Positions 31,634 through 57,990 of a stretch of 64,000 nucleotides of DNA are shown piece after piece. The DNA is from a virus (lineage: Duplodnaviria; Heunggongvirae; Uroviricota; Caudoviricetes), in the IMG/VR virus record IMGVR_UViG_3300031772_000005; one strand, 5' to 3'. The notes beneath the pieces are model-generated. The model saw only the letters and a list, made by a program, of their open reading frames with translations, ran no database searches and had not been told where the DNA came from. A program made the translations under genes and the position numbers. Every line of letters starts with the position of its first letter. The stretch's first letter is position 1.

Positions 31634-31680
31634 GATACTTGTGCCCATAGCATAAGGTTTAATAAATAAATAATCAATTA

Positions 31681-31718
31681 AGGGGATACACTGTAATGGT
31701 GTATCCCCTTTTTTTTAT
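31681..31718. terminator. bidirectional terminator at the convergence of the + and - modules
   Basis: AAGGGGATACAC-tgtaatg-GTGTATCCCCTT flanked by T-runs on both strands; lies between the last + gene (ends 31633) and the last - gene (ends 31715). Confidence 0.6.
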
Positions 31719-34700: not shown

Positions 34701-37700
34701 GCATATAATTCACCACGTTTTCTAGCTACTTCAGTTTGTCTACCTGGTTTATCAGTAATTTCTCTTATTATATTTTGAGCTGTTCTAAGATCATTATAAT
34801 ATTCTTGAGTATAAGCTACACTGAAGTTTTGTTTTTCCCATTTAAGTATTTCTTCTTCAAATTCTACAGGTGTATCTTCCATAGTAATACCAACAGAAGC
34901 TAATCTAGATATATAGTTATCAAAATCTTTTTGAATCCGGTCTTGATCTACAAACTGCTCATAAAATTTACTAGATTCAGTTCTATATTTTTTTCTTACT
35001 AAAACTTTTTCAAGTTCAGCACCTGTTTTAAAAGTACCATCTGGATTTTTAACATCATATAATCTTTTATATTCCATGTTAGCAAGAGTAAGTTGTGTCA
35101 TATTTTGCATATCAGCTAACTCATCTGCATCAACAACACTTAAAGCATTAATACTTTCTCTTTTTGCTTGTCTTTCTCTTTGGGCCTCAAATGAAGTTTC
35201 AGCACTAACAATAATTTTAGCACCTGTTTCAGGATGAATAACTTCATTTTCTTGAGTCCACATTTTTTTTACATCATATACTTCTTTTTTAAATTCTCTA
35301 TACATGTAATCTTCTTGAAATTTTTCAGAAGCTTTAAATGCTTCTTTAATAGCTACAGGATCATTTTTTTCTAAAGCTTGCTCATAATCATACTGTAGTC
35401 TACTTTTATCAGCTCTATAATTTTTATGAAGTTGCTGCCAAGCAAGAATTTCTTTTTCTTCAAATTCACCTGTTTTAGAATTTCTGTAACCTATCTTATC
35501 TGTAAATAAAATTTTATTAGCTACAGCAGATACATTATTACCTGTATAATTGACAGCTTTTACTTTTGGTGCTAATTTAATAGCATTAGTATCTTTTTGT
35601 TTATTATTGATTCTTTGCAAATCAGCTAATGAATTATTTAAACTTCTAGCAGCACCTGCAATAATTGGGTCATTCATATACATATAAGGTGTCAACATTG
35701 CATCAAATGATCCAACATCTCTTTTTTCACCAGATAAATATGAATTTAATGTAGCTTCACCAAGTCTTTTTAAATAATACTCACTAACAGCTTTAACTAC
35801 TTCTTTCCCAACACCTTTTGATACAGGTACACCTACTTCATCAATTGAAAAAACAAGACCATCTGGGTTAGCTATAATCTTATTAATAAATACATTAATT
35901 GTATCTGAATCAATTTGATCTGCTTTAAGAAATTGAGTAACTTTATCTTTAAATCTTTCTTCAATGTTCTCATTTATACCCTCCGTTACTTCACCATAAA
36001 ATTCAACAGTAAATCTTTTCTGTAAATCTTTAATTTTATCCTGTGCTTCAGCAATAGTATAACTAATACCATTCAATGTTTTAATAAATTCATTATTCTT
36101 ACCAAGACCTATTGTCTTTTTAATACTATGAATAAGATCATTGTTAGCAATTAAGATATTTGAATAGTAACTAATTTTAGGTATTATGTCATTAGCTTTA
36201 TAGTTTTCAATTTTTTCAAAATCAGATAGTATTTTATCTACATTTTCTGTAAATACATTAATGTCTTTTATTGAATTAAATAATGCTAAAGATTGATTTC
36301 TGAATTTAACATTCATATCTACAGATGCATCTATAATATCATCTACTTCTACTTCATTCACATTTAAGTTAACAGCACCTGCTTTACGCATATAATCTTT
36401 AATATAGTTAAAGATTCTAGTACCGTCATTACCTTTTAATTCTTTCTTGAGAACATTAGGTGATTTTTTAACAGCTTCAGCTATTACAAGTATTTTATTA
36501 TAGAAATCATTAACTGTTTTAGTTAATGCTTCCGGGGCTACTTGATTAAATTGTTCTGTTATATAATCAAATTCTTTTTTAAACTCTGCAAATTCAGATT
36601 CATCAAATACAATTTTATCAATAACAAAATCTTCACTTACTAACATATCAGAAAGTTGATCTAATGTAGTTGATGTATTTAATTTAGTAAGATTTATTTT
36701 ATTAACTAAAGCTTTTAAAACTTTTTTAATAGCATAAATAAGATTAGTTATGAATTTTTTAAAACCTGCATCTGTCTCAATTAAAGCATCTACTTTAGAA
36801 TCAGCATCTCTTTCTAAAGAAGTTACTAAAACCTCTTCTTTAAATCTATCATTTAATGTATCATCTTCATTATATAATTCAGGATACTTAGTCTTTACTT
36901 CTTCAACAATAGAAGCTCCTGTAGGAGTTGCTTCAAGTTGTCTGTATAAGTTATCAAATAAAGGTCTGTTAAGTACAGATATAGCTTTTATTAATGGGTG
37001 ACTGTATTCATGTAACACTATACCTGGTGTTAAATATTCACCTACAAAATATATTTTATTATTAAAATAAAAACTAGGTTGATTATCATAAGGTGTTTTA
37101 GAATCCATAAGTATTTCATATGCATCTTGAGCATTTATGAATTGATATGGTACTCCCATAGCTTTTTCAAGTTTCTGAGCAAGTCTATCAGCTACTTGTA
37201 AAACTTTATCATTTTCTAATATTTTTCTTGTATCATCATATTGGTTAAAGAAAGTATCTAATTCTGAAGCTCTACTTTCAACGGCAGATGCTTCATCTCT
37301 TTCTGTAACAGGTGTTATAATAACTTCTTTAGTATATTTATTATTGTCTCTTTCAGTAATCTCAAAAATATTTGGAAAACTTTCTGTTAAAGTGGTCATC
37401 AACTGAAGGTTAGGTTCAAAGACTAAAGCATTACTCGCTGCATCTTCAATAGCTGAACCAAAATTAGAATTACCTCTAGTAATATAATTTTTACCATCAA
37501 GTGTGTGAATAACTCCTTTCAATAAAGACTTAATAGCATGTTCATTTAAATAAGGATTTACAGATAAAGCTGAAGTAATTTTTTTAGAAATATTACTTTT
37601 TGTAGCAGTTAACCAATCTTTTACTTCTTGTTTATTAGGATAGTAATAATCCTCATTTTCTTTTATTTTTTTTACATCAATAGAATAATTGATAACAAAA

Positions 37701-37777
37701 CTTTGTGCAAGTTTAGCACCATATATTTTTTCAAGTGACTTAAATTCAGGTAAACTAGTTATTATACAACGTGCCAT
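31715..37777 (-). CDS. giant virion-associated protein (2020 aa) with LysM domain and HExxH motif
   Basis: Uninterrupted 6-kb ORF; LysM-like HEFKIGDTLESIAKKYSVTVEELKKKNKI near the C-terminus; VLHEYSHPL motif; hydrophobic C-terminal segments. Confidence 0.6.
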   Translation of the reverse strand: MARCIITSLPEFKSLEKIYGAKLAQSFVINYSIDVKKIKENEDYYYPNKQEVKDWLTATKSNISKKITSALSVNPYLNEHAIKSLLKGVIHTLDGKNYITRGNSNFGSAIEDAASNALVFEPNLQLMTTLTESFPNIFEITERDNNKYTKEVIITPVTERDEASAVESRASELDTFFNQYDDTRKILENDKVLQVADRLAQKLEKAMGVPYQFINAQDAYEILMDSKTPYDNQPSFYFNNKIYFVGEYLTPGIVLHEYSHPLIKAISVLNRPLFDNLYRQLEATPTGASIVEEVKTKYPELYNEDDTLNDRFKEEVLVTSLERDADSKVDALIETDAGFKKFITNLIYAIKKVLKALVNKINLTKLNTSTTLDQLSDMLVSEDFVIDKIVFDESEFAEFKKEFDYITEQFNQVAPEALTKTVNDFYNKILVIAEAVKKSPNVLKKELKGNDGTRIFNYIKDYMRKAGAVNLNVNEVEVDDIIDASVDMNVKFRNQSLALFNSIKDINVFTENVDKILSDFEKIENYKANDIIPKISYYSNILIANNDLIHSIKKTIGLGKNNEFIKTLNGISYTIAEAQDKIKDLQKRFTVEFYGEVTEGINENIEERFKDKVTQFLKADQIDSDTINVFINKIIANPDGLVFSIDEVGVPVSKGVGKEVVKAVSEYYLKRLGEATLNSYLSGEKRDVGSFDAMLTPYMYMNDPIIAGAARSLNNSLADLQRINNKQKDTNAIKLAPKVKAVNYTGNNVSAVANKILFTDKIGYRNSKTGEFEEKEILAWQQLHKNYRADKSRLQYDYEQALEKNDPVAIKEAFKASEKFQEDYMYREFKKEVYDVKKMWTQENEVIHPETGAKIIVSAETSFEAQRERQAKRESINALSVVDADELADMQNMTQLTLANMEYKRLYDVKNPDGTFKTGAELEKVLVRKKYRTESSKFYEQFVDQDRIQKDFDNYISRLASVGITMEDTPVEFEEEILKWEKQNFSVAYTQEYYNDLRTAQNIIREITDKPGRQTEVARKRGELYAERSQLVKQITDKNGQANGLQVSAETLKRLKKLEEDIVVLEESYDKYTGLTTAETAELAGYKAKLVNNIELTEAESAEYNRLFNAVNQMGLGALEQELLSTQYRILGDLNSKEPTEYYIEAINYALRGLEMEDITVDNADEWVNSPKLIEAMGKSEDFRNWFLRNHYEKQAWDSAYKTKTTKIFRTAVWTVAKPTNDASYKTTTLINPITGKEVTIKGVPGSKYTYNNVKKEYKTGYNKATDKVELIVGKHITNVSKSDFLPRDYVPGDIDSAVDNKYINQEYKAMKNANTAEYQLVNTISNLILDGQKDFLKGSKLYLDYPRMYHRTNLELIQAGKPGEKLANIKEGVTRAFDSKKRADTVEQGFNYDTDQILVTTDLSGAQISKIPVMGLSNLDKKDVSLDFLRAFEDYIASGNEQVMKNELLPLFQTISDVINEPENANKNVKLASRQVKKATGLISLVKITGDSRRGKAFDYFLDKIFYGKKNNNFTDEHVMLNKITNMIMSASSRSIIGMDMVSAAKQRFGQKWQSLVEGAGGKDVTYKSLALGKAKALQTTYELMAGGVYSLGPKSLNIQMMEYFDPVTGKTKKDFSKSASRTFTKDMVDMTFMYDVRRLAELEGGLALYEGMMHNKWIDQTQPDGSVKKILYAHAFELDSEGLIKLKDGINPEWGTEHVKHEFKIGDTLESIAKKYSVTVEELKKKNKIVDVNKLEEGDIIEISSSELFNDFRLKLQDKGFKLNGIIDDFNSPQAGQYLGWRLFSFYKNFAGGFILNRFHMDVSKGNVGGAVYNFGTNNLTKGYYISAFDGMMKVIKNLHKAWPLLTAEEKAGMAKTLVEGVFIALSAIAIKFIFGYDPDDEDRFKKLKQREVDYGFAGALSNQLLYQVMAVKTENEAFYPIIGTSQTLSMFSNTSIAMGHIKNLYKIAADLGNMMIGDDAARYKSDVGPYPWQMKNEDGTFDYKLWNHIGAVWGVKGKNYDAITAIKSKETAENLGL

Positions 37778-40700
37778 TATAATTTACATTTTAATACTGT
37801 TTCAATATATTGTTCTTCAGACATTGTACCTTCATACATTTGTACATAGTCACTAATTATTTCAGCTAAGTTACCTAAAGTTTCTTTTTCTTTTTCTGTT
37901 AACTCGGAATAAAAATTAAATATTACACTATCCATTGGTACAGTTACTTCATCTCTTACTTCATACTCTTTAGTAAGAATAACATTATCCGGAATAAACT
38001 TAGTTAACTTCTCAAATAAACTCTTTATCTCAGCTACAGTGTAACCTGCTTTATCACTACCAATTTTAGTTACATAAAATTTTAAGTCGGGTCTAGATTT
38101 AGCAAATAATAACATATCTTGAATTTCTTTTCCTATTTCCGGTAAAGTTGAAGATTTTACTACATCCCAATGTTTTTTAGTTACTACTGCATATGATTGT
38201 CCTTGTAATCCTTTAGCTTGTCCCTGTATAGCACCGAAGTTATCTCTAGCTGTTTTAGCTGCACCTGCACCATGTGTTGGTTTACCTCCTTTGGAACTTC
38301 CTTCATTAGAACCAAATACAAATATTTCATTAGGTTTAAGTTCTGTAATATTAGTTGGTGTGTATTCTCTAGTATCAGTTGATACTATCACAGGTTCTAT
38401 ATTTACTTTTACTTTACCCTCTAATTGAGGTCTAATCATATCATAAAATTCTGATACATTGACTTCTTTATCATTTGCAAAATCATAGAATAGATCAGGC
38501 ATTGCATCTATATCAACACCAATACTTTGCAACATACTTGTAGCTTCTATAAATGTATTAGTATTTAAAGGTGCATATGTATTATATGCATTATCTAAAT
38601 ACAAACCATTTGTAGCATTTTGTGGTATACGTATTATATGTACGTCATCTAGTGAAGATAATAAAGCATTTACTTCTGTCGCACCATTTGTAATTGCATA
38701 ACTTTGTAATTCATTACGTAATTCAGTTGCAATACTATTAACATATACTCCGGCTGATGGATTATTATAATCCGCAGGAGCAGCAACATAATTTTGAAAC
38801 TGATCTTTACTAACTACTTTATTAAAAATAGTATTTAAAGTAGGTGTGTTAATATGATTAGCCATGAAATCAGCTGAAGCATTTCTCATTACATCAACAT
38901 ATATAGCTTCATCTAGTATTTTTGGAAAACCATATTTACTAAATCCTACACCATGTTGATGTATCATCATTAAAGAAAACACTTTAAATATATCACTAAT
39001 CTTTTTATTATCCTCATCATCTTTTACTTTTCTAATATTTACATCACCCAGTTGTTTAAGATTTTGATTATATATTTCTGCTACTTCACCAATAGCCATT
39101 TTTTTATCATTAAGCTGAAGTACTTTAATATTTTCACCTTCTTTATTTTTATAAGGAGCTTGTGATAATTGGCCTAAAACAGGATACACTTCTTTTAATT
39201 GAGGGTATTGATTAATAATCTCCATTACTTGATCAGTATATGAGTAATCATTTGTACCCATTATAGCTTTAGCATTAAATACATTTATTAAAGCTCTTTT
39301 ATTTAAGTAAAGATCTGTTTCATTAGGGTACTTAGTTCTTAAAAATTCTCTTTCAATTACATATCTATTATAAGATGATTGTGACGGAAATGGATCATCG
39401 GCTATACTAAAAGGTTGTAAACCTCTTGCTGTATAATTATTACTATCATCTTTTTCTGTTATATATAACTGATTTCTGAAATCATTTTCTAATGTTTTTT
39501 CATCTATAAGTATCTGATCATTAGATATTTCAACACCTTTTGTTAAATCTTTACTTTTAACAATTTTCATACCTCTATATACATCTGGCATAGATACTAC
39601 ATTTCCATTAGCATCAATAAAGTTAGACATGTAGTTTTGAAAAATATATTGTATAACACCATTATTAAACTGGCTGCTAAATTTTTCTTGGCCATCTGCA
39701 CCTTTACCGTACTTTGCTGAAATAAGTTCTTTATTTGCTACTAATCTCGCACTAATATAATTAGATATATCAGCATTTAATCTTAATGGAAATAAAGGCT
39801 CAAGTATATCTATAGATAAATCATTAAGATAGAATGAACTTAAAATAGATTTTTCTTTTATATCTTGTAATAAGTCTGCATCAATTTTTGAAGACGTTGA
39901 TGCATTTATGTAATCAAGTTCTTTCTTTTTTATTTGTTGTACAGTTTTAACTATTTTAGTATCTGGATTTGCTTGACGCATTACATCACCAATACCTTTA
40001 ATGTATTTTTGAATCTCAATAAAATGTAAAAACATTGCTATTCTTTTTAACTCATTATCTCCATTATTAGGATCAGTGTTAGCTGTTTCAACAATTTTAA
40101 TCATGTCTTCTTTATCAAATGCATCTCCCGGATTAATTCCAGCCATATCTGATGCAACTGTAGCAGCATAATAATAGTTATCATTTTTAATTAAGTTAGC
40201 AGATCTGTTATAATCAGGTATTACATCTTCAATAGAATATAAACCTGTTATTCTATTATAACCTGTAGGATCATTAACCAACATTTGTTTTAATTTCTTA
40301 ACAGTTGTATCGTGGTAAGTCTTAAATTTAAAACCTGTAGCATATTGAATTTTTTCTACTCCTTTTAAATGATTTAAAAAAGCATCTACTTTAGCATAAT
40401 GTACTTTTAAAGCAATTTCTTTTTGTATATGTTCTGGTATGTATTTATCAACTACAGCTTCTGCAGATTTATATAAAATAAAGTTCTCATTTACAGGGCC
40501 CTTATTTATGATTGTAGAAAAAGTACTTTTCAATAACTTTTGTTGCATACCATATTCTCTAACTAAAGGATTAGCAACAAAGTATATAGCATCTTCTCTA
40601 GGTACACCTGCATTCATTAAATAATTAAGTACAGGTGTAGTTTCTGTATCTGCTTGAATATCAGCAACCCACGCATCTTTTTCAGCATCAAGTTGACCAT

Positions 40701-43700
40701 TCATTTTATGTGATCTAGTATCAGCAATACGTATATTTTCTTGATCATATCTATGAGATAAAGAAATTACTCTTTCCCCATTACTATTTAACATAGTATT
40801 ATGTCTAAGTAATAAACGTGTTTGATATTCATCTACACCTTCTATACTTTTTTGTTGAGCATCATCAAACTTAGAAGCTTGATATGTTGCAGGCATTTTG
40901 GCACCAATAGAATTCCAAATAGGGTGTTGTTTATTATCTTGAGCATCAATACCTAATGCAGCCTTAGCCATCATATTTTTTTCATGCTTATCTAAATTAT
41001 AACCAATCTCTAATGTTGTTGTAGGAGATATAGTTCTTTTAGTTTCGTCATTAGGATTTATTCTTTCTGATTCACCATGTGCTACATTATATCTATTATA
41101 TTCTGTAACATATTTTTGTATTTTATCAGCTATAGGTTTTAATAAGTAAGTATCATTAGGTCTTACTAATGATGCATAATTTTCTGGTATAGCAAGTAAA
41201 TTAGCTGTTGAAGCAATTAATTTATTTTCTAAAGCAGCTCTTTGTTTACTTAATAAACTCTTTGCACTAATTGTAGTTTTATCTTTAATCTGTTCCCCTT
41301 TCAAAGAAGCCAATTCCTTTGACAATTGAGAATTAGTTTTACTTGATTTAACATAAGTTCCTCTACTACTAATATGAGGCATCATGAAATAAAGTTTATC
41401 AACGTCAAAATCGGATCCGGCCTTTGCTACAATTTCAGTAGGTACTACAATTTTATTACCTGCAGCTGGATCTAAAAAATGGTATATCTCAGCAAATTCT
41501 AATGAGTTCAAATTTTGAATTGGAATACGTGCTCCAGACAGAGTTACTAATTGTCTATTGTCTCCTGTATTTAACCAGTTATCATCTTTAATTGCTTCAT
41601 TTAATCTATCTATAGTACCTATTCTTTCACCATTAAAAGAAACTTCAAGTATATTAATAAAATCTCCCTGTAGAGCAATTGCAACTTTCATTGCATCTGT
41701 ATTACCATTTGCACCTGGTTTGTAAAATGGTAGATTATTTGACCCCATCCATTTTTTTACATCATCTTCTGTAGCTTTTTTAAGATTAGGACTATTACTC
41801 CATAAACCATTATACATAGTTGACGGTACTTGTACAAGTGATTCCCCTTTAACTTTTTGTTTAATTAATCTTTTATTGATTACAGATAATAACATTTTTT
41901 CAATAGTATCTGCCTCTAAATGTAAAGACAAATCTGTTTTAAGAGACCCGTCAGGATTAACACCAATCATTTTAATTAAATGCTCAGGCATATCTCTTTT
42001 AGATAATTCTTTTTGTACTAAAGATAATAACTTAGTAAATTCACCTTGATATCTGCCATCTTTATATTCCCATTGAATCTCATGTAGTAATTCAATTTTC
42101 AAAAACTCAGTATAATTTGCAACATCATCGTGGTACTCTTTTGCTAACTCAGCATGTTTCTCATAAGATAATTTACCTTGCTCATATAAACCATCAAGTA
42201 TTAATCCTCTTAACTGTGTTGGAAATGGAATCTTACCTTTAAACTTATTATTTACTTCAGTAACATTCTTTAAATATTCTAAAGCTATTATGTTGTCTGT
42301 AAAAGTTAATTTATCTTTTAATTTAGTTTGAGTAGAATCTGTAAACACTTCATCAGCACTACCATTAGATGTAATACCACCTACTTTTGATCCAGATTCA
42401 TATGTTACATATTGAATGTTATTTCTTAACATTTCTTTATGTAAATGATCTAACTCACTATTCTTAATTTCTGATGGGATAAGAGGAGCTAATGCAAATT
42501 TATGCATAGATGTTACAGGAGCTAAAGTATCATTTAATAATTCACCATAATTCTGTAATTTATAAACCGGGAAAAATTCTTCTATTTCAGATGTTGTAAC
42601 AACTCTATCATTTATAATGTCTTGAAATAAAGCTTCTTGTTTATCAGACCAATTATTTTCTAATTTTTTAAGAGTTCTGTAACCATCAATAGTAATATAA
42701 CCTGCTCCATCAGCCTCATTCATTTCTTTATAAGACTTTAAATCTTTTTTAATATTTTCATCTATTATTTCTTTTATTTCTTTTTTAGTTTTACCTGAGT
42801 TTTTTAAACTTAATTCATAATCGTCTCTTAATCCTTTTTCAATATCTTTTAAATATACAGAAGGTCTATCTATATCTTTAATAATAGCTGTATTAAAAGT
42901 ACCGTCATAAGAAAATTTATCATATTCTGCACCAAGAGTTTTAGCAAGTTTAGCAGCATACGTTTTTTGATTCCACGTATTATTAATAAAGTTTTGAGCC
43001 CACTCATCAGTTAAAAATTTTCTACCTCCTGATTGAGAACCTGTATTTCTTTTATGTAATTCTTCTTTAACATGATTAAACTGAGACATGTCACCAATAA
43101 ATAAATTTACCGTCTCAAAATTATGAATCCAAGAATTATAAGTAAATGCTTTAACTAACATATACTCTTGTTCTTGTTCTGTTAATTTAGGATTTCCAGT
43201 TTTTTCAATTAATGATGGATCAATATATTTAGCATTAGTTAAGTTATTTAAATTATCACTAACCTGCTCATTAAAATATTGTATAATATCTTTTTGAATA
43301 GCATCTCTTAGATCTTTATTTTGTTTTACATAACCTATTAAACCATTTTTATTTTCAGTTATACCTTTCACTACATCATTACTAAGTAGTAATACTTTAG
43401 TGTCTTTACTTAATACTTTATCAAAAGCTGTAAATACTTCACCAGCATATACAGGATCTTCTTTTGTACCACCTACTCTTTTATTATAACCAGTATATTT
43501 TTTAAATTCTTCTCTATTGTTTTTAAACTTTTGAATTCTTTCAAATTCAGAAGCTATATAAGGTATCATAATTTTATCTATTGCGTACAATTCACCTGTT
43601 TGTTCTTTATTAAACATGTCAATATCTACATATAAACTACTATCTTTTCCTTTATCTTTAATAAGGCCTCCTTTAACTCTTACACCAAGAGAAGTCTTTT

Positions 43701-46700
43701 TACCAGCTGCTCTAATAAATTCTTGCAAACCACCTTTTAACATAGTGTGCATTTCTTGTAAAAACTTACTAGATTTGTCTAAGTCAGATGTATTAGTACC
43801 TTCACTAAATTCAGCAACTTGTGTTCCTGATACCATAGTTAAGTCTAAATATCTTTCATGTCTTCTATCTTTTTGTCCTTCATTTATTTTACCTGTCTCA
43901 TAATTAAATACACTTTTTAATATTTGAGAATAATTAGTAAAGCTTGATACTTTTGGATTTAAGTATTTCATATACTTAAACTCACTTTTAATCCAACAAT
44001 CTGTAAGATTTTCAATGCTATTTAAAGCATCAATTTTTCTTGATATTGAGAAATCTTGTACAAAAGGAAACACCATATCTCCAGCTGCATTAAATATACC
44101 TTTACCTTTTGTTTCTAAACCAAATTGTGCTTGTAATCCAGCTAACCTATCTAATATATTCTTTTGATATACTTGATCACCACCTAAACTTTTAATAACA
44201 CCTTTTGGTATTTTACTTTTAAGTAAAGCTAAAGGATCCATTACAAAACTTTTTAATGTTTTTTGTGCATCAACACTAGCATTAAAAGGATTACTTTGTA
44301 TTTCAGCTAAGTCTTTTACTATTTGATAGATATAAGGAAGACCATAATACTCAGAATTATCTTTTAATTCTTTTTTAATAACATTTAAATTATCTAAACC
44401 TATACCAATAGCTCTAGCAAAATCATAAGATTTATTTACATTTAAGAAACCAGGATTATTTTTATCTTCAAAAGTCTTAGTTAAACTAGCAAGCTTAGTT
44501 AACATAGTTATGTTATCTACTTTAGTAATAAAAGGGTTATCTTCCGGTTGAACTACTTTAAATTCATTCTGAAAGCTTCTAATTATATTACTAGGTTCAA
44601 TAGAAGCATCTATTACTTCCATAGTAAACCCTGTTATAGTAGGTTCCATATAACCTGTTTGTTCATCTAGCAACATTTCTTTAATAGGAAATGCTGTTAA
44701 TTGACTATAAGCTATATCAGATAAACTTAAATCTTGCCAAAAAGCTGCACTTACATCAAACTCTGATGTGTGCATTATTTTAGTAGGATCTGGTAATTTC
44801 TTTTCAACTAGTTGTTTTAATTCAGGTGCATAAGTTAATGAAGCTTCTACTAATTTTTTAAAAGCAACCTCTCTATTTTTAACGCCACCTACTTCTCTAA
44901 GTAGTATACCCCAAACTTTATTGAAGTCAACAAGTTCTTTGAAACCTAATTTGTTATTTACAGTTTTACCTTTTATAATTTTAAATAAACTTTTTACAAT
45001 ATACAAAGTTTCTTTACCTGCAAATTGCTCAGCAGATTTTTTACCTACTGACTTATCTACTATACCTGCACTATCATTACCATCAGATATATCTGTTTCA
45101 TCTACAGGATCACCATTTTCATCAAATACTTCATCTCCATAATCTATATCAATAAATTTTTGACGTATTAAATCAAATCTACTATTATTAGCATGGTACT
45201 TCATAACCCCGGATTTTTCATCTCCCCAGTTATTAATTGTATTTTGAAGTATTCTAATATTATCAAGTAAGGTTTCTTGCTCAGAAGTTAATTCTTTATA
45301 TACAGGTCCATCTTCTTTTATTTCAATTGAAGTAAAATCCGGCGAACCTCCTTTTATATAATTGTCAAATTGCGCTTTTGCATCTCTTACATCATTAACA
45401 ATAATTACATTTACATTTTTATCATTAACTAAAATATTATTATGCTTATAAAAATCTGATATAATCTCAATTGAACCTTTATATTTTTCTCCTTTAACTC
45501 TTTCTCCTTGTTTTATATCTGGAGTTAGATTATTAAAGTTTTCAACTTGACTATTTAAGAATATATACTTATCTTCTCCTTCTTTACTACGGATAATAGC
45601 AATTGATTCATTCTCTAAATCTTCTATAGTAGTCAGTTCACTAAATGATTTATCTGTAATAACTCCTAGTTCATCGTTAAGATCATCTAATCTATCTTCT
45701 AATACAGCTTTTACATAACCATAAGCTTTACTTCTATTAGTAATACCGTCTTCATCTTTTTCATTTGATAATAAAACTAGTGTACCTGATTTAGTAACAG
45801 CTTTACCATTACTAACTCTAGCATCATGATTTGCATCTACATAGTCAGATAATATTGAATCAATAGTATTAGATATAAGATTAGCTTCTTGTTTAGTTAA
45901 TACATCAACTTCAACATCAGTAACTTTTTCTACACCTCTATTAAGTAAATCCCATGTTACATTGTCTATAGAAGGGCTATAATTATTTAATAGGCTTGGA
46001 TCTTTACTTGCTAAATATAATGCATCAAACATTTCAGTTACTGATGCTGGATAATTACCTACTACAACATCTTTTGTATTAGTTTTACCTCCAAATAACT
46101 TATATAAGAAATCTAATATTTTTTGAAATATAGTTTTTTGAATAGGTGCTTTTGCTTTAAATGTTTTTGGATCTTTTGCATAAGTTCTAAAGTCTTCAGC
46201 AATCATTTCTTCAATTTCAAAAAATGACTTATTTGCATAAGGTGTATTACCTGACTTATCTTTATATTCTCTTATATCATTATATAACTTAAGCTTTTCT
46301 TTTTCAGTAAGATACAGTTGTGAAAATCCATGCCATGCTTCATGGTATACATCAACCATACTACCTTTCTGATAAATTGATATGTTAGCTAATATAGTTG
46401 GATCTATTAAGGTTGCTCCGGTTACTGTAAATCTTGCAAATGCATCTGAGTTAACTAAATTAGCTGCATGATCAAGTGTAATATATTTATTTAACGGTGA
46501 AGTATTCCACCAGTTATTAGCCTTTTCTATATCTTCAACAGTTACATCTCCGCTTAATTTTGCTGATCTATCTAAACCTTTAATATTTTGATTGAGTAAT
46601 GATGCAGCTCTAGATATTTTACTAGTAGGTTTAATAGGGCTAGTAAGTATAATAGGGTCTTCAAGTTCAGGTATAGTTTCTTTTTCTTCAGTTGCTATAA

Positions 46701-48981
46701 CTTCTTGCTCTTCAATCTCATCTTCGAGTCTTGGAGTTTCTTGTTTTACACCATACTCAGTTTCTGCTAAGTTACCTAAATAAGCACCTTGTGTACCATT
46801 TTCATTTACTGCATATACTTCTACTACATCTGCTATAACTTGTCCTGTTTCAGTTGTTAATTCAGGTCTTAAAACTAATCTAACTAAGTTACCTACTGCA
46901 GGCCAAGTTGGATCTTGAAATGTTTTACCTTCTTTTGATATTAAAGCGGTTTTATTTTGAAAATAAACTTTTGCTTCTCCTTCAATACCTGGTACTGTAA
47001 CATTAAAATTAGCATAATGAACTTTATAAAATCCTTTTTTAATAGCTGTAACATCAGCATCTATTACTTCTCCAGATTCTTTTAATCTATTTACTATAGC
47101 ATCTTTTAAATTTTTTGTATCAGACGCTGTATCTTCTTTTAACTCTGCTTTAACTTTATCAACTTTAGCAAGTAACTGAGAAGGTAAAGCAAATTCCATA
47201 TATGCATTAAACAAACCTGGATCAGAACTATTAATACTAATTTCTGTATTTAAATTTTTAATAAATTCAATGTAATCCTTAAACTCAATACTATCAGATT
47301 CTTTGTCATATGTCATATAACGTTCATTCTTAAGTAGTTCAGAATTAAAATTCATCTTAGCAGGGTATCTTCTTGTATTACCCTTACCACTCATTAATAC
47401 TTCATATATTCTTTGTGCATCATCAACTAACTGTGCTTCAGTTTTATTATCAATAGATTCTTGAGATAGATTAATTGAGTTATCTAAAAAATTTCTTTGA
47501 GGTTGTTCTTGTGAGGTATCATTAGAATAGTTAAACCAAAATTCTTTATTCTCTAATTTACCTCCAGTTTCATGTCTTCTTGTTGTAGCTTGAAGATCAT
47601 TACTAAAAAACTGTTTATAGAAATCAATTCTTTCTGAAAAACTAATATTCTTATTTGTTAATACTTGTGCTACTTGCAAAGCTATTTCTTTAGGTACATC
47701 AGCTCTATCTATAATACACTCATTACCATCTAACAATATACTTGCAAAACCTTTCTTGAATACTCCTCTACTTTGTTGAATAGTTTTTATAGTCTTAAAA
47801 GTATTTCTGTTAACACCGGATAATTGTGATATTTTATTTAAAGATATTTTATTACCAAATGATTCAGGTAATCCAGAACTTATTCCTAAAAAAGGTAATA
47901 GTACAGGTTGTTTATCAGCTAATACCTTTTCTTTAAATTCATATATTTTTTTAAAGTCCTCTTGTTGTTCTGTCTTAATTAAGTTATAATACTCATTAAA
48001 AGACATACCTAGTTCTCTACTATAACTTTTAGTAGCAATCTCATAAGGGTCTTGTATTTGATCTTCTTTACCGTATATATCAGTTACAGTATAATTGTCC
48101 CCTTTTTTTCTAGCATCTCTTAAAAATTGATAAACTAATTTACCTCCTTCATCTTTAGAACTTATGCCACCTTCTGAATTAAAATATATAGGTGCACCTA
48201 AAGTATTTGATATTACTAAAGCTACTATATTATCTGTAGGTGTAACTCCTGCAGCATTACTATTTTGTTTAGCAATAGATCTAGATTTTATAATTAAGTT
48301 TCTAGTATAAGTATCTAAATCTGTTTGAGCTATGCTAGATAAAGGTACAGCCTTAAGTTTAAGACTAACTCCTTCATATATTAAATCATTAGCTATTGTT
48401 TGTTGTGGATTAAGTACAGCTCTAATAGCATTAAGCGTAGTATAAATTATTTTTTTAGATTCTTCAACTTGTTCTACATCCGCAATATTTTTTGACGTAG
48501 GATCTACTGCTAAAAATTCTTGAAATGTACTTGTAAAAGAACTATATGGTTTTAATCTTTCACTAAAAAAACCTGGTACAGGATCAAATTCTTCAATATT
48601 AAAAGCTTCATCTAACTTTGTTTCCGCTAAACCTTTGAGAGCTTCTCCACTAACTACATTATTGTATGTACTAATGATTGTTTGTATACCTTTATCCGGA
48701 TGTAAAAAAGATTGTCCTAATTTATGAATAGATCTTAAATCTACAAAATCTTCAATTTCAAAAAAATCTGTATTGGCTATATCAATAATCATTCTTGGTA
48801 TATGCTGAACAATTTTTGCAGCAATTTCTGGAGTAGATACCTCAGCTTTACCATTAAAAATATGTTTTATATACTTAGTTACATCAAAGTTACTATTCTT
48901 TAATGCCGCATCTTGCATATGGCCATAAATGTTTTTATATAATTTCTCTACAGTTTCCGTAGAAAGGGCACAATTTATCAT
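37777..48981 (-). CDS. giant virion protein (3734 aa), candidate crAss-like virion RNA polymerase
   Basis: 11.2-kb uninterrupted ORF; AKAGSDFDVDKLYFMMPH resembles the beta-prime NADFDGDQMAVH Mg-binding loop; HEAWH motif; C-terminal Gly-rich module FVFGSNEGSSKGGKPTHGAGAAKTA. Confidence 0.55.
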   Translation of the reverse strand: MINCALSTETVEKLYKNIYGHMQDAALKNSNFDVTKYIKHIFNGKAEVSTPEIAAKIVQHIPRMIIDIANTDFFEIEDFVDLRSIHKLGQSFLHPDKGIQTIISTYNNVVSGEALKGLAETKLDEAFNIEEFDPVPGFFSERLKPYSSFTSTFQEFLAVDPTSKNIADVEQVEESKKIIYTTLNAIRAVLNPQQTIANDLIYEGVSLKLKAVPLSSIAQTDLDTYTRNLIIKSRSIAKQNSNAAGVTPTDNIVALVISNTLGAPIYFNSEGGISSKDEGGKLVYQFLRDARKKGDNYTVTDIYGKEDQIQDPYEIATKSYSRELGMSFNEYYNLIKTEQQEDFKKIYEFKEKVLADKQPVLLPFLGISSGLPESFGNKISLNKISQLSGVNRNTFKTIKTIQQSRGVFKKGFASILLDGNECIIDRADVPKEIALQVAQVLTNKNISFSERIDFYKQFFSNDLQATTRRHETGGKLENKEFWFNYSNDTSQEQPQRNFLDNSINLSQESIDNKTEAQLVDDAQRIYEVLMSGKGNTRRYPAKMNFNSELLKNERYMTYDKESDSIEFKDYIEFIKNLNTEISINSSDPGLFNAYMEFALPSQLLAKVDKVKAELKEDTASDTKNLKDAIVNRLKESGEVIDADVTAIKKGFYKVHYANFNVTVPGIEGEAKVYFQNKTALISKEGKTFQDPTWPAVGNLVRLVLRPELTTETGQVIADVVEVYAVNENGTQGAYLGNLAETEYGVKQETPRLEDEIEEQEVIATEEKETIPELEDPIILTSPIKPTSKISRAASLLNQNIKGLDRSAKLSGDVTVEDIEKANNWWNTSPLNKYITLDHAANLVNSDAFARFTVTGATLIDPTILANISIYQKGSMVDVYHEAWHGFSQLYLTEKEKLKLYNDIREYKDKSGNTPYANKSFFEIEEMIAEDFRTYAKDPKTFKAKAPIQKTIFQKILDFLYKLFGGKTNTKDVVVGNYPASVTEMFDALYLASKDPSLLNNYSPSIDNVTWDLLNRGVEKVTDVEVDVLTKQEANLISNTIDSILSDYVDANHDARVSNGKAVTKSGTLVLLSNEKDEDGITNRSKAYGYVKAVLEDRLDDLNDELGVITDKSFSELTTIEDLENESIAIIRSKEGEDKYIFLNSQVENFNNLTPDIKQGERVKGEKYKGSIEIISDFYKHNNILVNDKNVNVIIVNDVRDAKAQFDNYIKGGSPDFTSIEIKEDGPVYKELTSEQETLLDNIRILQNTINNWGDEKSGVMKYHANNSRFDLIRQKFIDIDYGDEVFDENGDPVDETDISDGNDSAGIVDKSVGKKSAEQFAGKETLYIVKSLFKIIKGKTVNNKLGFKELVDFNKVWGILLREVGGVKNREVAFKKLVEASLTYAPELKQLVEKKLPDPTKIMHTSEFDVSAAFWQDLSLSDIAYSQLTAFPIKEMLLDEQTGYMEPTITGFTMEVIDASIEPSNIIRSFQNEFKVVQPEDNPFITKVDNITMLTKLASLTKTFEDKNNPGFLNVNKSYDFARAIGIGLDNLNVIKKELKDNSEYYGLPYIYQIVKDLAEIQSNPFNASVDAQKTLKSFVMDPLALLKSKIPKGVIKSLGGDQVYQKNILDRLAGLQAQFGLETKGKGIFNAAGDMVFPFVQDFSISRKIDALNSIENLTDCWIKSEFKYMKYLNPKVSSFTNYSQILKSVFNYETGKINEGQKDRRHERYLDLTMVSGTQVAEFSEGTNTSDLDKSSKFLQEMHTMLKGGLQEFIRAAGKKTSLGVRVKGGLIKDKGKDSSLYVDIDMFNKEQTGELYAIDKIMIPYIASEFERIQKFKNNREEFKKYTGYNKRVGGTKEDPVYAGEVFTAFDKVLSKDTKVLLLSNDVVKGITENKNGLIGYVKQNKDLRDAIQKDIIQYFNEQVSDNLNNLTNAKYIDPSLIEKTGNPKLTEQEQEYMLVKAFTYNSWIHNFETVNLFIGDMSQFNHVKEELHKRNTGSQSGGRKFLTDEWAQNFINNTWNQKTYAAKLAKTLGAEYDKFSYDGTFNTAIIKDIDRPSVYLKDIEKGLRDDYELSLKNSGKTKKEIKEIIDENIKKDLKSYKEMNEADGAGYITIDGYRTLKKLENNWSDKQEALFQDIINDRVVTTSEIEEFFPVYKLQNYGELLNDTLAPVTSMHKFALAPLIPSEIKNSELDHLHKEMLRNNIQYVTYESGSKVGGITSNGSADEVFTDSTQTKLKDKLTFTDNIIALEYLKNVTEVNNKFKGKIPFPTQLRGLILDGLYEQGKLSYEKHAELAKEYHDDVANYTEFLKIELLHEIQWEYKDGRYQGEFTKLLSLVQKELSKRDMPEHLIKMIGVNPDGSLKTDLSLHLEADTIEKMLLSVINKRLIKQKVKGESLVQVPSTMYNGLWSNSPNLKKATEDDVKKWMGSNNLPFYKPGANGNTDAMKVAIALQGDFINILEVSFNGERIGTIDRLNEAIKDDNWLNTGDNRQLVTLSGARIPIQNLNSLEFAEIYHFLDPAAGNKIVVPTEIVAKAGSDFDVDKLYFMMPHISSRGTYVKSSKTNSQLSKELASLKGEQIKDKTTISAKSLLSKQRAALENKLIASTANLLAIPENYASLVRPNDTYLLKPIADKIQKYVTEYNRYNVAHGESERINPNDETKRTISPTTTLEIGYNLDKHEKNMMAKAALGIDAQDNKQHPIWNSIGAKMPATYQASKFDDAQQKSIEGVDEYQTRLLLRHNTMLNSNGERVISLSHRYDQENIRIADTRSHKMNGQLDAEKDAWVADIQADTETTPVLNYLMNAGVPREDAIYFVANPLVREYGMQQKLLKSTFSTIINKGPVNENFILYKSAEAVVDKYIPEHIQKEIALKVHYAKVDAFLNHLKGVEKIQYATGFKFKTYHDTTVKKLKQMLVNDPTGYNRITGLYSIEDVIPDYNRSANLIKNDNYYYAATVASDMAGINPGDAFDKEDMIKIVETANTDPNNGDNELKRIAMFLHFIEIQKYIKGIGDVMRQANPDTKIVKTVQQIKKKELDYINASTSSKIDADLLQDIKEKSILSSFYLNDLSIDILEPLFPLRLNADISNYISARLVANKELISAKYGKGADGQEKFSSQFNNGVIQYIFQNYMSNFIDANGNVVSMPDVYRGMKIVKSKDLTKGVEISNDQILIDEKTLENDFRNQLYITEKDDSNNYTARGLQPFSIADDPFPSQSSYNRYVIEREFLRTKYPNETDLYLNKRALINVFNAKAIMGTNDYSYTDQVMEIINQYPQLKEVYPVLGQLSQAPYKNKEGENIKVLQLNDKKMAIGEVAEIYNQNLKQLGDVNIRKVKDDEDNKKISDIFKVFSLMMIHQHGVGFSKYGFPKILDEAIYVDVMRNASADFMANHINTPTLNTIFNKVVSKDQFQNYVAAPADYNNPSAGVYVNSIATELRNELQSYAITNGATEVNALLSSLDDVHIIRIPQNATNGLYLDNAYNTYAPLNTNTFIEATSMLQSIGVDIDAMPDLFYDFANDKEVNVSEFYDMIRPQLEGKVKVNIEPVIVSTDTREYTPTNITELKPNEIFVFGSNEGSSKGGKPTHGAGAAKTARDNFGAIQGQAKGLQGQSYAVVTKKHWDVVKSSTLPEIGKEIQDMLLFAKSRPDLKFYVTKIGSDKAGYTVAEIKSLFEKLTKFIPDNVILTKEYEVRDEVTVPMDSVIFNFYSELTEKEKETLGNLAEIISDYVQMYEGTMSEEQYIETVLKCKL

Positions 48982-48991
48982 AACTTTCTTA

Positions 48992-51900
48992 TTAACAATC
49001 TGATGTGGAGTCTTGGAATAAATCTTTATCTAAATCTTCAGTAGATTTACCTTTAGTTTCTGTTTTTAATTCATCTTTTCTTTGAGAATTTACTAAAAGG
49101 TCTTTTACATTATCTGATGATTCAGTAATTAAAACTTTTTCTTGAGCTGTAGGTTTAACAGTAGGTGTCTCTATATTATCCATAAGATTTTCTTTTAAAA
49201 CAAATAGTTTATCAAGCTCATTAAAACTTATAGTTTTTTGTCTAACCTTAGCTCCTATACTTTTTAATACTATTTTTTCTGTAGTATTATTAACTGAAAC
49301 TACTGTTACTTCTGAACCTTGACTAGCAAACTCATTTGCATTATTTTTACCCGTAAAGATAATTTCTTTTGCTATAAGTCTGTCACCAATTTGTAGGTTA
49401 TTTTCAGTTAATTTAACAACTGCATTTTCAGCTAATTCTAATTCTCTTGTATCAACTAATTCTTGAAGAAGTGTAATATCAGTTAGACCTATTTTGTTTT
49501 GAGCAATAAGTATTGCAAACTTTTGTTTAAACTGATTTAACTGTTCAGAAGTAGCTTCTCTAATAAACTTAACTAAACTAGGATCTAAACCTCTAGTTAC
49601 TTCATCATTTGTTTGTTGTTGATCTGTAACAGCTGGTGATTTACCTTCTTCAGAAGTTTCTCTTTCAACTTCTTCTGGCGCTACTTCACCTTTTTTAGGT
49701 ATAACAGAATCAATCTGTGCTACTTGTTCAGGAGTAGGATACAAAGGAATTCTATAATTACCTGGTTCTAATAAAGTTTTTGATTTAGGTTTATTAGCTG
49801 AAGTAACTTTACCTGTTTCTTTATTGTAATCAATTTCAACAGGTAATATACTTATGTTAGCTTTAAGGCCAGTTAAATTAAATAACAAATTAGAGTATGC
49901 TAACTGTTGTAAAACATAACCAGGTTTTTGTGGAAACTTAGCATTTTCATTATTAAAGTTATTCCATTTACTAACCTTACCTGTTTTAACATCAATTATA
50001 TATACTTTACCTGATCTATCAACAGCAAGTAAATCTACTTCACCTGCTACTTTAGCTTCTTTGTCATATAGAATTATACCGTTATCACCGTAACCTCTAG
50101 ACATTATGTGAAGTCCTTTACTATCTATTACTTTTTTAATACTTACTAAGTAACCTTCATTATCAGGATCTGTATTAAATAAATTGTCAAAAGCTTCTTG
50201 ACTTATATTATCTTCATTAAATACATTAGGCTTGTTATCAAAAAGTAATCTTATCTGATTATCTAAATAATTACCAGCTATTCTAGAAGCTTCATTAGTT
50301 TTCTCAGCAACTAAATTAAGTACTGTATTTAATAAATCTTGATTACTTGATTTTTTTTGGACAGTTCTTTTTAATTCAGATATTTGTTTTTCAATTTCTT
50401 CTACTCTAGTTTTATCTCCAAACTCTCCTTGTTCAGTAAGTAGATCTTGTTCTAATGATTCAATAGTTCTTTCTTGTACAGAAACATCTATATTATCCTG
50501 TAAAGCAGCATAGATTTCCTTTAACTCTTTTTCTACTTCAGTATAAGTAAACTCACTAAATCCACTAAGACCTTTTTGTACACGTAAATTTTCAACAAAA
50601 GCTTTTATTGAATCTTTTGTTAAACCATCTTTTTGTATAGTACTGTTAAAACTAATTGTAATCTCATCAGCATTAACATGCTTATATTCTTCTTTAAATT
50701 GATTAATTACATTAGTAACTCTATCCATTGTAACACCATCAAGCTCATAACCTTTTGAGCTACGCTTAATTCTAGAGTTATCTTTAATTATTTGTTGTAT
50801 AGCATTTATAGTTACTTTTTGTTCCGGAGATAAATCTTCTTGAGATAATTTATCTAAATATTCATTTAATCTTATTATGAATAACTTATATTGACTGATT
50901 TTTAAATCATCTTCTGAAGTTTTATCTTCTTTTGCCTCAAGTTCTTTTAATCCTATCTCATGACTTTTTAAATAATTTCTCAATACAGATTCAGATAACT
51001 TGTCAGCACTAACTAATTCATTACCAATTAATAATTTAGGTATTTCATAAGTTTCATCAGTTGCTTTTGTAGCCGTTTCTAATTGTTGATTTTTATTATA
51101 TTCTTCAATTATACTAGCAGCTATATAATTACTTCTAACAAAAGATTCAAAAGCAATATTATAATCATCTAACTCAGCAATGTTTAAACTATTATCAGCA
51201 GCATATTTTTCAAAAGCTGCTACTAACTCATTATATACCTCTGGAGGCATACTATCTATATCTGTCTCATTGTTTATAGTAACCGGTTTTTCAAAAAAAG
51301 ATTCAATATCTTGAGTACCCTTTTCTATACTTCTATCAATAACTTCTTGCTTTGCTTTAGTAAATTCTTCTTTAATAGCAGCAACTTCTTCCGCATTAGG
51401 TTCTTTAGTTATTGTATATTTAACTCCACTAGCAAATGTAGAAATACCATATAGAGCTCTAAAATTTTGCAGATCTATTTCAATACCATCAATATTATCT
51501 ATTTTAAGTACATCACCATCTTTATAAAAAGTTAATCTTTCTATTTCTTCATCAACAGTAGCAATAGTATCAGCATATTCTCCGGTTAATAAATCTTGGT
51601 TAAGTTCATTTATTGTCATATTAGTAAACCCACCTAGTTCATTTCTTGTATCAAACTTATCTAGTGCATTAAGTCTAGCTTCTTGCATCTTATCTAATTC
51701 ATCTAACTCAGCTTGAACAGCTTCACTGTTAATTTCACTACTAGATTTTTTATTTCTGATACTTGCAATAAATACAAAAGGTGCTATAATTTCATCATAA
51801 TCAGGATGAGATTTTTTAATAACAGTTTTGTTTACATCATTGAAAATTTCTTCAGGTGTAATTCCAAATTGTTGCCACATTTGAAAATCATCTAAGCTAA

Positions 51901-57900: not shown

Positions 57901-57990
57901 TTGCAGTACATTATTATAGAAATTTAAATCCGGTTGAAAAGGTTGAAACTGAGGTATATAATCTGTTACGCCCTGGAGATAAGTACTCAT
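54928..57990 (-). CDS. large virion/structural protein (1020 aa)
   Basis: 3-kb ORF, start overlaps the GIY-YIG stop (TAATG); no recognisable catalytic motif. Confidence 0.55.
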   Translation of the reverse strand: MSTYLQGVTDYIPQFQPFQPDLNFYNNVLQTKQTQYDSNYKQLNQVYGQYLYADLTHEDNIQRKEELLKNIDVTLKKVSGLDLSLEKNVTQATQVFKPFYEDQYLMKDMAFTKNYTAQRNRAEGLKNSLDEKTRALYWADGVAALDYQREEFKESAIADTLGISNAKYTNYVNVQEKALQITKEAGLSMETVKWSPDGRYMVTTKNGEQLMEPLSKLLESQLGNDPAIQEVYKTQAYVDRKNFAASNAAQFGGDKNAAEMNYLETNFNRLKQQQTMRYESLRDDTVSYDGRIRDIQKQINSGDKNPDLPKALANLEYGKQINDDVLNRVKVDVDAMQDRQGTATTSTGSENPYGDIKSLRWKVDNALASSLMEKDLDESAQIFAFRDAKQSIVADPFAVSAQNHSYRMQEVASSNASREKVAAAQIRAADKRAKDKWDLSTGAAHYDSQEFIEDANGNKIPNPTFNQVVKNESYDNIFTEFEDKGIASGEVSMAQLSRNISSRQTNTYGVPYMQESLALLDQAVKEGVMTEAQADKILHTEKDKSMTRAKFKAGLSGNADAFLKGTVGANSLFWISKKLDYWIDHNKSVSLITKQSHPGYTKASSNFKDYTGYLEADKKWRINGANQVEQNLTNQGLKDAQFLYRPDGTLRSEDEFNRIARKPGAPTKLNKSLAAINQELTQYVKTRYLPQSKSNSNADRMRDAMRLGQRDPHVIELQKQARQIIATPGYSALPDDTYQNLVSAAGKAWKSSTIKTPTAIPGLSQSGLGDMTASGLFTPGRQSINVAPLAFGTKGNAYFHEFERDFRKLDFATSGISFNGTNLSDDKDIRYQQTQSGKRMLNDMILSMNDTKSKYKNFKMSSQVIAGGNADKGAMIIYPDAEWLANYIKSKDGAGLLNAETDYNDILTNGISVVSDSKNWSNGLFVSSYLDPIAAIVESNPNGYQWKSMDQKTSFNVTKNTTGTGDYNLETNYSLLDHETNTYNDYTIYDNMTTQGNNLSKAKLHSIEVANKVTQHNSGR

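Follow-up and report, generated by a model that had tools for sequence, protein, structure and literature searches.

The experimentally characterized virion RNA polymerase (RNAP) of the crAss-like phages is gp66 of Cellulophaga phage phi14:2 (PDB 6VR4), a protein of 2180 amino acids (aa) whose catalytic site is the motif 1361-DFDID-1365 and whose trigger loop spans residues 1598-1636; all crAss-like RNAPs have either Ile or Val at position 4 of this motif (Drobysheva et al., bioRxiv 10.1101/2020.03.07.982082). The corresponding protein of crAss001 is gp50, with DFDVD at residue 1483 (Bayfield et al. 2023, PMC10172136). Here we describe a 64,000-nucleotide stretch of the IMG/VR virus record IMGVR_UViG_3300031772_000005 (the whole stretch is referred to as the window), in which a single uninterrupted open reading frame (ORF) with an ATG start, at positions 37777-48981 on the minus strand, encodes a protein of 3734 aa. 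We conclude, with a probability of roughly 85%, that this ORF encodes the catalytic single-chain, two-barrel, DNA-dependent RNAP of a crAss-like phage, set within a longer cargo protein and orthologous to phi14:2 gp66 and crAss001 gp50. The RNAP extends a known enzyme family by a new and divergent member, from an uncultured lineage.

The 3734-aa protein resembles phi14:2 gp66 in its two-barrel core, its DFD(I/V)D-K catalytic loop, its conserved lysines and its trigger-loop region, and the two loci share gp67-like and gp65-like giant gene flanks together with a pattern of terminal cysteines. The two proteins are 24% identical by BLASTP and 18% identical in the Foldseek alignment, and gp66 is much the shorter, with neither the N-terminal ~1100-aa HExxH module (there is no HExxH motif in gp66 or gp67) nor the A1S_2505 domain near the C-terminus. 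The ~1550 additional residues are the N-terminal ~1100-aa module, two lineage-specific inserts, and a C-terminal accessory slot. crAss001 gp50 aligns with aa 2068-2537 (E=4e-16), and two parts of crAss001 gp47 (its HEAFH block and aa 1693-1911) are matched in window proteins, with complementary terminal Cys residues in both phages. In crAss001, however, the HExxH block ends the upstream protein gp47, whereas in the window phage it lies inside the RNAP protein; gp47 is also encoded on the opposite strand, and no accessory C-terminal domain was detected in gp50. In the Suoliviridae fusions cr118_1 gp14 and cr4_1 gp26 the HEAFH block (aa 1734 and 2002 respectively) and the DFDxD motif (aa 3209 and 3433) are on one chain, with a spacing similar to the 880 to 2524 of the window protein, but a gp67-like protein is also fused on and there is no N-terminal Cys; tblastn finds them similar to the window protein in the catalytic region only (27%, covering 28% of the query).

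A tblastn search with aa 1334-3000 against 50,697 phage records gives matches confined to crAss-like phages, the best of which is phi14:2 g066, annotated 'Catalytic RNA polymerase subunit'. Pairwise BLASTP against gp66 gives an alignment of 832 columns (E=6e-23; aa 1778-2556 against gp66 664-1388) in which GSDFDVDKLYFMMPH is aligned on GSDFDIDKMYVMLPN and DFDVD on gp66 1361-DFDID-1365, and a second segment of aa 2750-2877 against gp66 1597-1731 (E=2e-6). The catalytic loop AKAGSDFDVDKLYFMMPHIS occupies aa 2519-2538 (window 41368-41427), and DFDVD, with Val at position 4, occupies aa 2524-2528 (window 41398-41412) and is the sole D.D.D match in the 3734-aa protein. A five-residue motif is weak evidence alone, and this one stands above chance because it lies inside the 832-column alignment, on the catalytic GSDFDIDKMY of gp66. 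A full-length alignment of 97 homologs shows no variation at D2524, D2526, D2528 and K2529; position 2525 is occupied by F or Y, and 62 sequences have V at position 2527 against I in the other 35.

The original prediction, which was made from the sequence of the window and proposed a crAss-like virion RNAP, had given both the extent of the ORF and the position of the motif, and both were recovered in the ORF and motif checks. It had further suggested that the motif parallels the beta-prime loop NADFDGDQMAVH, with three Asp retained and a His at the same spacing. The Asp triad is conserved in all 97 homologs, but the parallel fails for the His, as that of MMPH is at +8 after the last Asp rather than the +5 of NADFDGDQMAVH, is conserved in just 5/97 homologs (the others have N, S, A or T), and is Asn in gp66; judged from the alignment, the resemblance of the MMPH His to beta-prime is coincidental. 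Among 121 giant representatives (P0249-P0395) the catalytic motif is DFDID in 47, DFDVD in 43, DFDGD in 6 and DYDGD in 2, the last two having the 'cellular' Gly at position 4, and a few others have F, Y, A or L.

For aa 1780-2950, an AlphaFold model built from an alignment of 33 homologs has a mean predicted local distance difference test score (pLDDT) of 84 and a predicted template modelling score (pTM) of 0.79. When compared to the PDB with Foldseek, the top match is 6VR4_A, the gp66 crystal structure (E=2e-33, probability 1.0, template modelling (TM) score 0.63, 1168 columns). The next matches are weak, and include T. thermophilus beta-prime, Arabidopsis RDR2, other beta-prime/Rpb1 chains, P23-45 gp96 and the phiKZ nvRNAP; the 50 best Foldseek matches are all two-barrel RNAPs and none is a T7-like polymerase. 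This comparison with gp66 is the check that had been proposed originally, and it finds the double-psi beta-barrel (DPBB) fold around the motif. Neurospora QDE-1, plant RDR2 and cellular beta-prime are alike in two-barrel catalytic architecture and Asp triad, but have Gly at motif position 4 where the window protein has Val, and differ in the spacing of the His; the Foldseek matches to RDR2 (7eu0_M) and beta-prime have E values of 7e-3 to 0.3 and TM scores of ~0.1.

A second, beta-like barrel with conserved Lys was also sought. Three lysines, K2141, K2161 and K2199, are invariant in 97/97 homologs, align with gp66 K1012, K1027 and K1065, and lie ahead of the connector, in a segment rich in beta-strands (model residues 361-462). 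They are the putative equivalents of the beta-subunit Lys residues, and from the alignment and secondary structure we infer that the beta-rich aa 2140-2241 form the beta-like DPBB. The genomic setting is also as proposed, with the RNAP gene lying between a gp67-like and a gp65-like (HExxH and LysM) giant gene. The interpretation of the protein as a crAss-like virion RNAP is thus supported by its sequence, fold, Asp triad, upstream Lys residues and gene order, with the virion location itself proposed by analogy.

The features of the protein and of the two giant genes that flank it are as follows, with window coordinates:

37777..48981, minus strand: whole ORF, giant cargo protein with two-barrel RNAP (BLASTP, profile search, Foldseek)
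48970..48972, minus strand: Cys4, in the family consensus M-x-x-C-A-L (Cys in 91/91 aligned N-termini)
47182..48981, minus strand: N-terminal conserved block, aa 1-600
46582..47181, minus strand: variable acidic linker and small beta-barrel, aa ~600-800
45697..46584, minus strand: HExxH block, aa 800-1095, candidate gluzincin-like metallopeptidase
46330-46344, minus strand: HEAWH, aa 880-884
46195-46212, minus strand: EEMIAE, aa 924-929
45232..45684, minus strand: lineage-specific insert, aa ~1100-1250 (occupancy 0.02-0.2 in the 97-sequence alignment)
43645..45234, minus strand: conserved region before the modelled core, aa ~1250-1779 (family conservation)
40132..43644, minus strand: RNAP core, with both barrels, connector, bridge-helix and trigger-loop region, aa 1780-2950 (AlphaFold, Foldseek, BLASTP)
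42259..42564, minus strand: beta-rich domain upstream of the connector, aa 2140-2241, candidate beta-like barrel (K2141, K2161, K2199)
41368..41427, minus strand: catalytic loop AKAGSDFDVDKLYFMMPHIS (DFDVD at 41398-41412)
40351..40734, minus strand: region aligned to the gp66 trigger loop and surroundings, aa 2750-2877 (BLASTP against gp66 1597-1731)
aa ~2850-2950, minus strand: second lineage-specific insert, ahead of the C-terminal body (alignment)
38782..40134, minus strand: conserved C-terminal body, aa ~2950-3400 (colinear in >80 full-length homologs)
aa 3400-3680, minus strand: variable region, followed by the conserved last ~55 residues (alignment)
37963..38325, minus strand: A1S_2505-family accessory domain, aa 3553-3673 (NCBIfam NF049995, PHROG 2072)
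37786..37788, minus strand: Cys3732, in the conserved C-terminal tail ...VLKCKL (Cys in 95/97 aligned sequences)
48992..54928, minus strand: upstream giant cargo gene, 1978 aa, in the gp67 position (aa 1534-1744 match crAss001 gp47)
31715..37777, minus strand: downstream giant cargo gene, 2020 aa, gp65-like (HEYSH at aa 256, LysM at aa 1705-1745)

The conserved polymerase body, as judged from the 97-sequence alignment, spans aa 1250-2850. Its first part, aa ~1250-1779, has no BLAST-level similarity to gp66 (tblastn, pairwise BLASTP) and probably corresponds by colinearity to the gp66 N-terminal domains.

The 3734-aa protein contains only four Cys residues, at positions 4, 422, 1662 and 3732, of which the first and last are conserved as listed above and Cys422 and Cys1662 are unconserved. 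A Cys is present in the last 1-5 residues of 119/128 RNAP homologs. The sole Cys of the upstream 1978-aa protein is its last residue (window 48995-48997), and the downstream 2020-aa protein has its only Cys at residue 4 (window 37766-37768). In a survey of 74 distinct IMG/VR loci the upstream ORF has a Cys within its last 10 residues at 60/60 loci, the RNAP ORF has one within its first 8 residues at 63/63 and one within its last 10 residues at 68/68, and the downstream ORF has one within its first 8 residues at 63/63. The interiors of these three cargo proteins contain 17 Cys in 421,540 residues (0.004%) across IMG/VR loci, compared to 1.04% Cys in the plus-strand replication ORFs of the window. 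The same terminal pattern is present in cultured phages, listed here in the order upstream protein, RNAP and downstream protein:

phi14:2: gp67, one Cys, the last residue, Cys1797; gp66, Cys3 and Cys2179/2180 only; gp65, Cys3 only
crAss001: gp47, Cys2339/2341 only; gp50, Cys5 and Cys2404/2412; gp49, Cys5 only
DAC15: gp078, one Cys, residue 2220 of 2222; gp076, Cys5 and Cys2265 (last); gp077, Cys4

cr108_1, cr118_1 and cr4_1 likewise have a C-terminal Cys in the RNAP and an N-terminal one in the downstream protein. In cr118_1 gp14 and cr4_1 gp26, in which upstream protein and RNAP form one chain, there is a C-terminal but no N-terminal Cys, and the protein that follows the fused RNAP begins MICPN. 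The position at which the chain is broken varies by lineage, being before aa 1 in the window, after the HExxH block in crAss001, and absent altogether in the Suoliviridae, with Cys on both sides of each break. Given that Cys residues are found at abutting termini, nearly never inside the proteins, and not where the proteins are fused, we infer that they form head-to-tail disulfide links. The three giant crassvirus cargo proteins may be joined by their terminal Cys into a redox-cleavable 'polyprotein' of ~0.6-0.9 MDa with a 1:1:1 stoichiometry, threaded through the tail in gene order, a proposal to which we give even odds. If true, this terminal-Cys chain bears on how a crassvirus can package ~5 MDa of cargo protein in constant proportions and extrude it through the tail in sequence. 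Disulfides occur in crAss001 virions (PMC10172136). No mention of cysteines was found in the gp66 preprint, the crAss001 atlas does not mention those of the cargo proteins, and a literature search was empty.

The HExxH block at aa 800-1095 is a candidate zincin-type metallopeptidase on the basis of its residues and predicted helices. H880, E881, H884, E924, E925, E929 and R932 are invariant in homologs, with the Glu cluster 40 residues after HExxH; HEAWH is in a predicted helix at 875-890 and EEMIAE in one at 920-936. This is the arrangement by which zincins are recognized, with HExxH on one helix and a Glu on the following one (PMC5512222). The block matches crAss001 gp47 aa 2138-2211, with HEAFH at 2157 (profile E=2e-12, BLASTP E=0.002), and a search of the PDB with the HExxH profile gives spurious matches only. 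We also considered that it might be a duplicate of the zincin of gp65 or of that of the downstream 2020-aa protein, and found no hidden Markov model similarity to either. More generally, the N-terminal 1100 aa have no tblastn match in the 50,697 phage records, and Foldseek against the PDB gives a best E of 0.05 and no convincing fold.

Near the other end of the protein, aa 3553-3673 score 109.1 bits (E=1.3e-31) with NF049995, 'A1S_2505 family phage non-structural protein', for which the curated cutoff is 45 bits, and also match PHROG 2072 (E=2.5e-26). The A1S_2505 domain has >2200 homologs, which are mostly stand-alone proteins of 130-140 aa, with some fused to NADAR or DUF1810. Pfam gives no match to this C-terminal domain even at E<=10, and its profile matches the PDB only at E~1, to the macro-like hypothetical proteins 2fg1/2afc over an 'IGCGLAG' motif, a hint of a macro-like fold. 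A SLOG/DprA-like domain was considered at this position in the window protein and is unsupported. Relatives have NADAR, RNase H, AlkB-like 2OG-Fe(II) oxygenase, cpYpsA (SLOG) or AAA_33 kinase domains at the same C-terminal position, as well as ART-PolyVal, the latter with a match below the Pfam cutoff. The swapping of accessory enzymes in this slot marks the polymerases as delivery vehicles for counter-defence activities of the first minutes of infection, and is convergent with the N4-type virion RNAPs (vRNAPs) and polyvalent proteins. The coliphage N4-type vRNAP (~3500 aa) and the polyvalent proteins are alike in that a giant virion-delivered RNAP is flanked by zincin-type HExxH and other modules, with accessory enzyme domains such as ART and SLOG; in N4-type vRNAPs a fused zincin domain is always present (Iyer et al. 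2017, PMC5512222). The N4 polymerase, however, is T7-like and not two-barrel, and Foldseek found no structural and no sequence similarity to it; the resemblance is architectural and convergent rather than that of a shared family.

Taken with the gp66 and crAss001 work, these observations suggest the following course of events. The RNAP would be carried inside the capsid and extruded, together with the DNA and in a partly unfolded state, through the tail; it would refold in the host and there transcribe the early genes without the host RNAP, in a rifampicin-resistant manner. The HExxH block may act as a peptidase on the cargo chain or on host targets, and the C-terminal slot may deliver an accessory activity, possibly related to ADP-ribose. 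Cys4 would pair with the Cys that ends the upstream 1978-aa protein and Cys3732 with Cys4 of the downstream 2020-aa protein, such that a disulfide takes the place of the missing peptide bond and the three cargo proteins travel as one covalent chain. This chain would be the functional equivalent of the fused crassvirus polyproteins and come apart once reduced in the host cytoplasm, and as the position of the break drifts between lineages a new Cys pair would come to flank each break.

Several points weigh against this picture. Packaging, ejection and RNA synthesis by the 3734-aa protein are proposed by analogy with gp66 and crAss001. The phmmer searches of PDB sequences, with either the whole protein or aa 1668-2700, gave no 6VR4 match, and the sequence is therefore highly divergent (24% identity); the assignment of the three Lys to a beta-like barrel is derived from alignment and secondary structure. 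The HExxH block has neither a Pfam nor a structural match, and the beta-sheet region predicted ahead of it has a pLDDT of <50. The disulfide link is suggested by sequence statistics, and the Cys counts come from phylogenetically related loci and so do not amount to independent events. No cargo links have been reported from the crAss001 samples analysed by mass spectrometry with and without reduction (PMC10172136), and neither a thioredoxin nor a sulfhydryl oxidase was found among the 10 plus-strand ORFs of the window.

Among the alternatives, the one that survives best is that the 3734-aa protein is a true polyprotein, cut after packaging or ejection, perhaps by its own HExxH domain or by the gp65-like zincin, into an N-terminal module, a ~2000-aa RNAP and a free C-terminal effector, in which case the intact 3734-aa chain would at no time function as a single enzyme. 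According to the gp66 paper, polyproteins formed by fusion are 'likely cleaved into individual components', and the cleft-blocking domain may be cleaved as well (bioRxiv 10.1101/2020.03.07.982082), and zincin processing of such chains has been proposed in the polyvalent-protein literature (PMC5512222). Consistent with this, the linkers at aa 600-800, 1100-1250 and 3400-3540 are poorly conserved, and two distant relatives, P0012 and P0013, appear to begin near aa 1680-1740. The start of P0012 is doubtful, however, as an uncalled 3.2-kb stretch lies upstream of it, no cleavage site is defined, and more than 80 full-length relatives have the N-terminal module and the RNAP in one ORF. We regard cleavage of this kind as possible but somewhat short of an even prospect; it is compatible with the main explanation given above.

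The next alternative concerns the cysteines, which might not link the cargo proteins to each other and could instead bind metal, anchor the proteins to portal or inner-capsid proteins, form homodimers, or be modified. The pairing is supported by sequence statistics only, the C-terminal Cys often follows acidic residues (..TSDC, ..DLDC, ..EDPFKC) in a manner that could suit metal binding, and with ~six copies of each cargo protein in the crAss001 virion (PMC10172136) other partners exist. The Cys residues are nonetheless strictly complementary, with the first protein having a C-terminal Cys only, the middle one both, and the last an N-terminal Cys only; the N-terminal Cys is missing exactly at the fusions in cr118_1 gp14 and cr4_1 gp26; and the position of the break shifts among lineages with Cys on both sides each time, which anchoring and homodimer models do not predict. 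We consider these other roles less likely than not and retain head-to-tail linkage as the preferred explanation of the terminal Cys. The last alternative, a fortuitous DFDVD in a structural or ejection protein (either tape-measure-like or bearing an N4-type T7-like vRNAP), is rejected, since despite the giant size shared with the N4 vRNAP, the lack of any Pfam match in the RNAP region and the empty phmmer search of the PDB, it is opposed by the 832-column BLASTP alignment, by a Foldseek match to 6VR4 (E=2e-33) whose lesser companions are all two-barrel RNAPs, and by catalytic residues that are invariant across sequences ~25% identical to the window protein. An N4/T7-like polymerase fold was also looked for and is not among the 50 best Foldseek matches, and Pfam finds nothing significant in the whole 3734-aa protein.

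The minus-strand arm of the window contains, in order, genes encoding proteins of 988, 763, 213 (GIY-YIG), 1020, 1978, 3734 and 2020 aa. In the upstream 1978-aa protein aa 1534-1744 match crAss001 gp47 aa 1693-1911 (~210 aa, E=5e-15), and this gp47-like region overlaps a sub-threshold Pfam PD-(D/E)XK nuclease match at aa 1601-1673. BLAST gives a weak match between the downstream 2020-aa protein and gp65, and the HEYSH at aa 256 of the former has a counterpart in the HEIMH at 245 of gp65. The order giant gene, RNAP gene and LysM-containing giant gene is kept in relatives (including locus L003). The 1020-, 763- and 988-aa virion-side proteins (54928-57990, 58695-60986 and 60997-63963) contain zero Cys, and tblastn finds no counterpart of the 988-aa protein in deposited phages. 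The 213-aa GIY-YIG homing endonuclease ORF (57990-58631, minus strand; PHROG 314, E=1e-32) lies between the 763-aa and 1020-aa genes and overlaps the start of the latter with its stop.

The genes of the plus-strand arm form a replication module, encoding an SF2 helicase, a MoxR ATPase, DnaB, a DnaG-type primase, an exonuclease and PolA, together with an HNH endonuclease-like ORF (22483-23580, plus strand; PHROG 1314, E=5e-50). The replication (plus) and virion/cargo (minus) arms converge at window ~31633-31715, where the GC and AT skews change sign. The closest relatives of PolA are in Vibrio phages (34% identity), and the putative placement of this phage in the Crassvirales rests on the cargo-gene block only; no crass-type major capsid protein, portal or terminase gene was identified among those of the 64-kb window. 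The phage has a GC content of ~28%; identity is 77% to the nearest protein relative and ~24% to the nearest deposited phage.

A search with the single sequence of the 3734-aa protein gives 13 relatives, mostly contig-truncated, and a profile search gives >208 homologs, mostly of 3100-3520 aa and colinear from residue 2 to ~3400, with the N-terminal module and RNAP kept colinear within one ORF in the >80 full-length relatives; the closest are 77% identical (P0055, P0061). A profile of the HExxH block searched against 1.84 billion cluster representatives gives 1700 proteins, nearly all giant. The best 150 of these 1700 are nearly all 3200-5338 aa in length, with HEAxH at ~700-980 and DFD(V/I)D at ~2200-2760, and 51/147 cluster representatives are 3734 aa or longer, with a maximum of 5338. 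In IMG/VR there are at least 405 loci (trimmed catalytic-loop alignment), and the RefSeq crassviruses cr118_1 (4946 aa) and cr4_1 (4491 aa) have both the HEAxH block and the DFDxD motif. The 3734-aa protein had been thought an unusually large fusion, which is not borne out by these lengths; it is large relative to gp66 but ordinary for its family, in which the 2180-aa gp66 is at the short end of the range and 3100-5300 aa is typical.

Four further loci deserve comment. A 20.5-kb IMG/VR contig, IMGVR_UViG_3300032053_006388, is 99% identical over the catalytic loop and has the same termini as the window (MINCALSTET; upstream ...DLFQDSTSDC), and is probably from the same or a sister phage. On the contig of the distant relative P0012, 3.2 kb directly upstream of the RNAP gene is uncalled (L002:4646-7845), and the gene may be longer than called, via recoding, an intron or a frameshift. 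In crAssphage cr108_1 (NC_055878.1; L087:16380-16671) the annotated RNAP gene ends in the catalytic loop (...TEIVAKAGSD) and resumes ~290 nt further on (LYDIDKMYLY...), which points to an interruption of the active-site motif by an intron or another insertion. The annotated giant genes of crAssphage cr4_1 (NC_055893.1) contain 7-38 in-frame stops under table 11, consistent with stop-codon reassignment.

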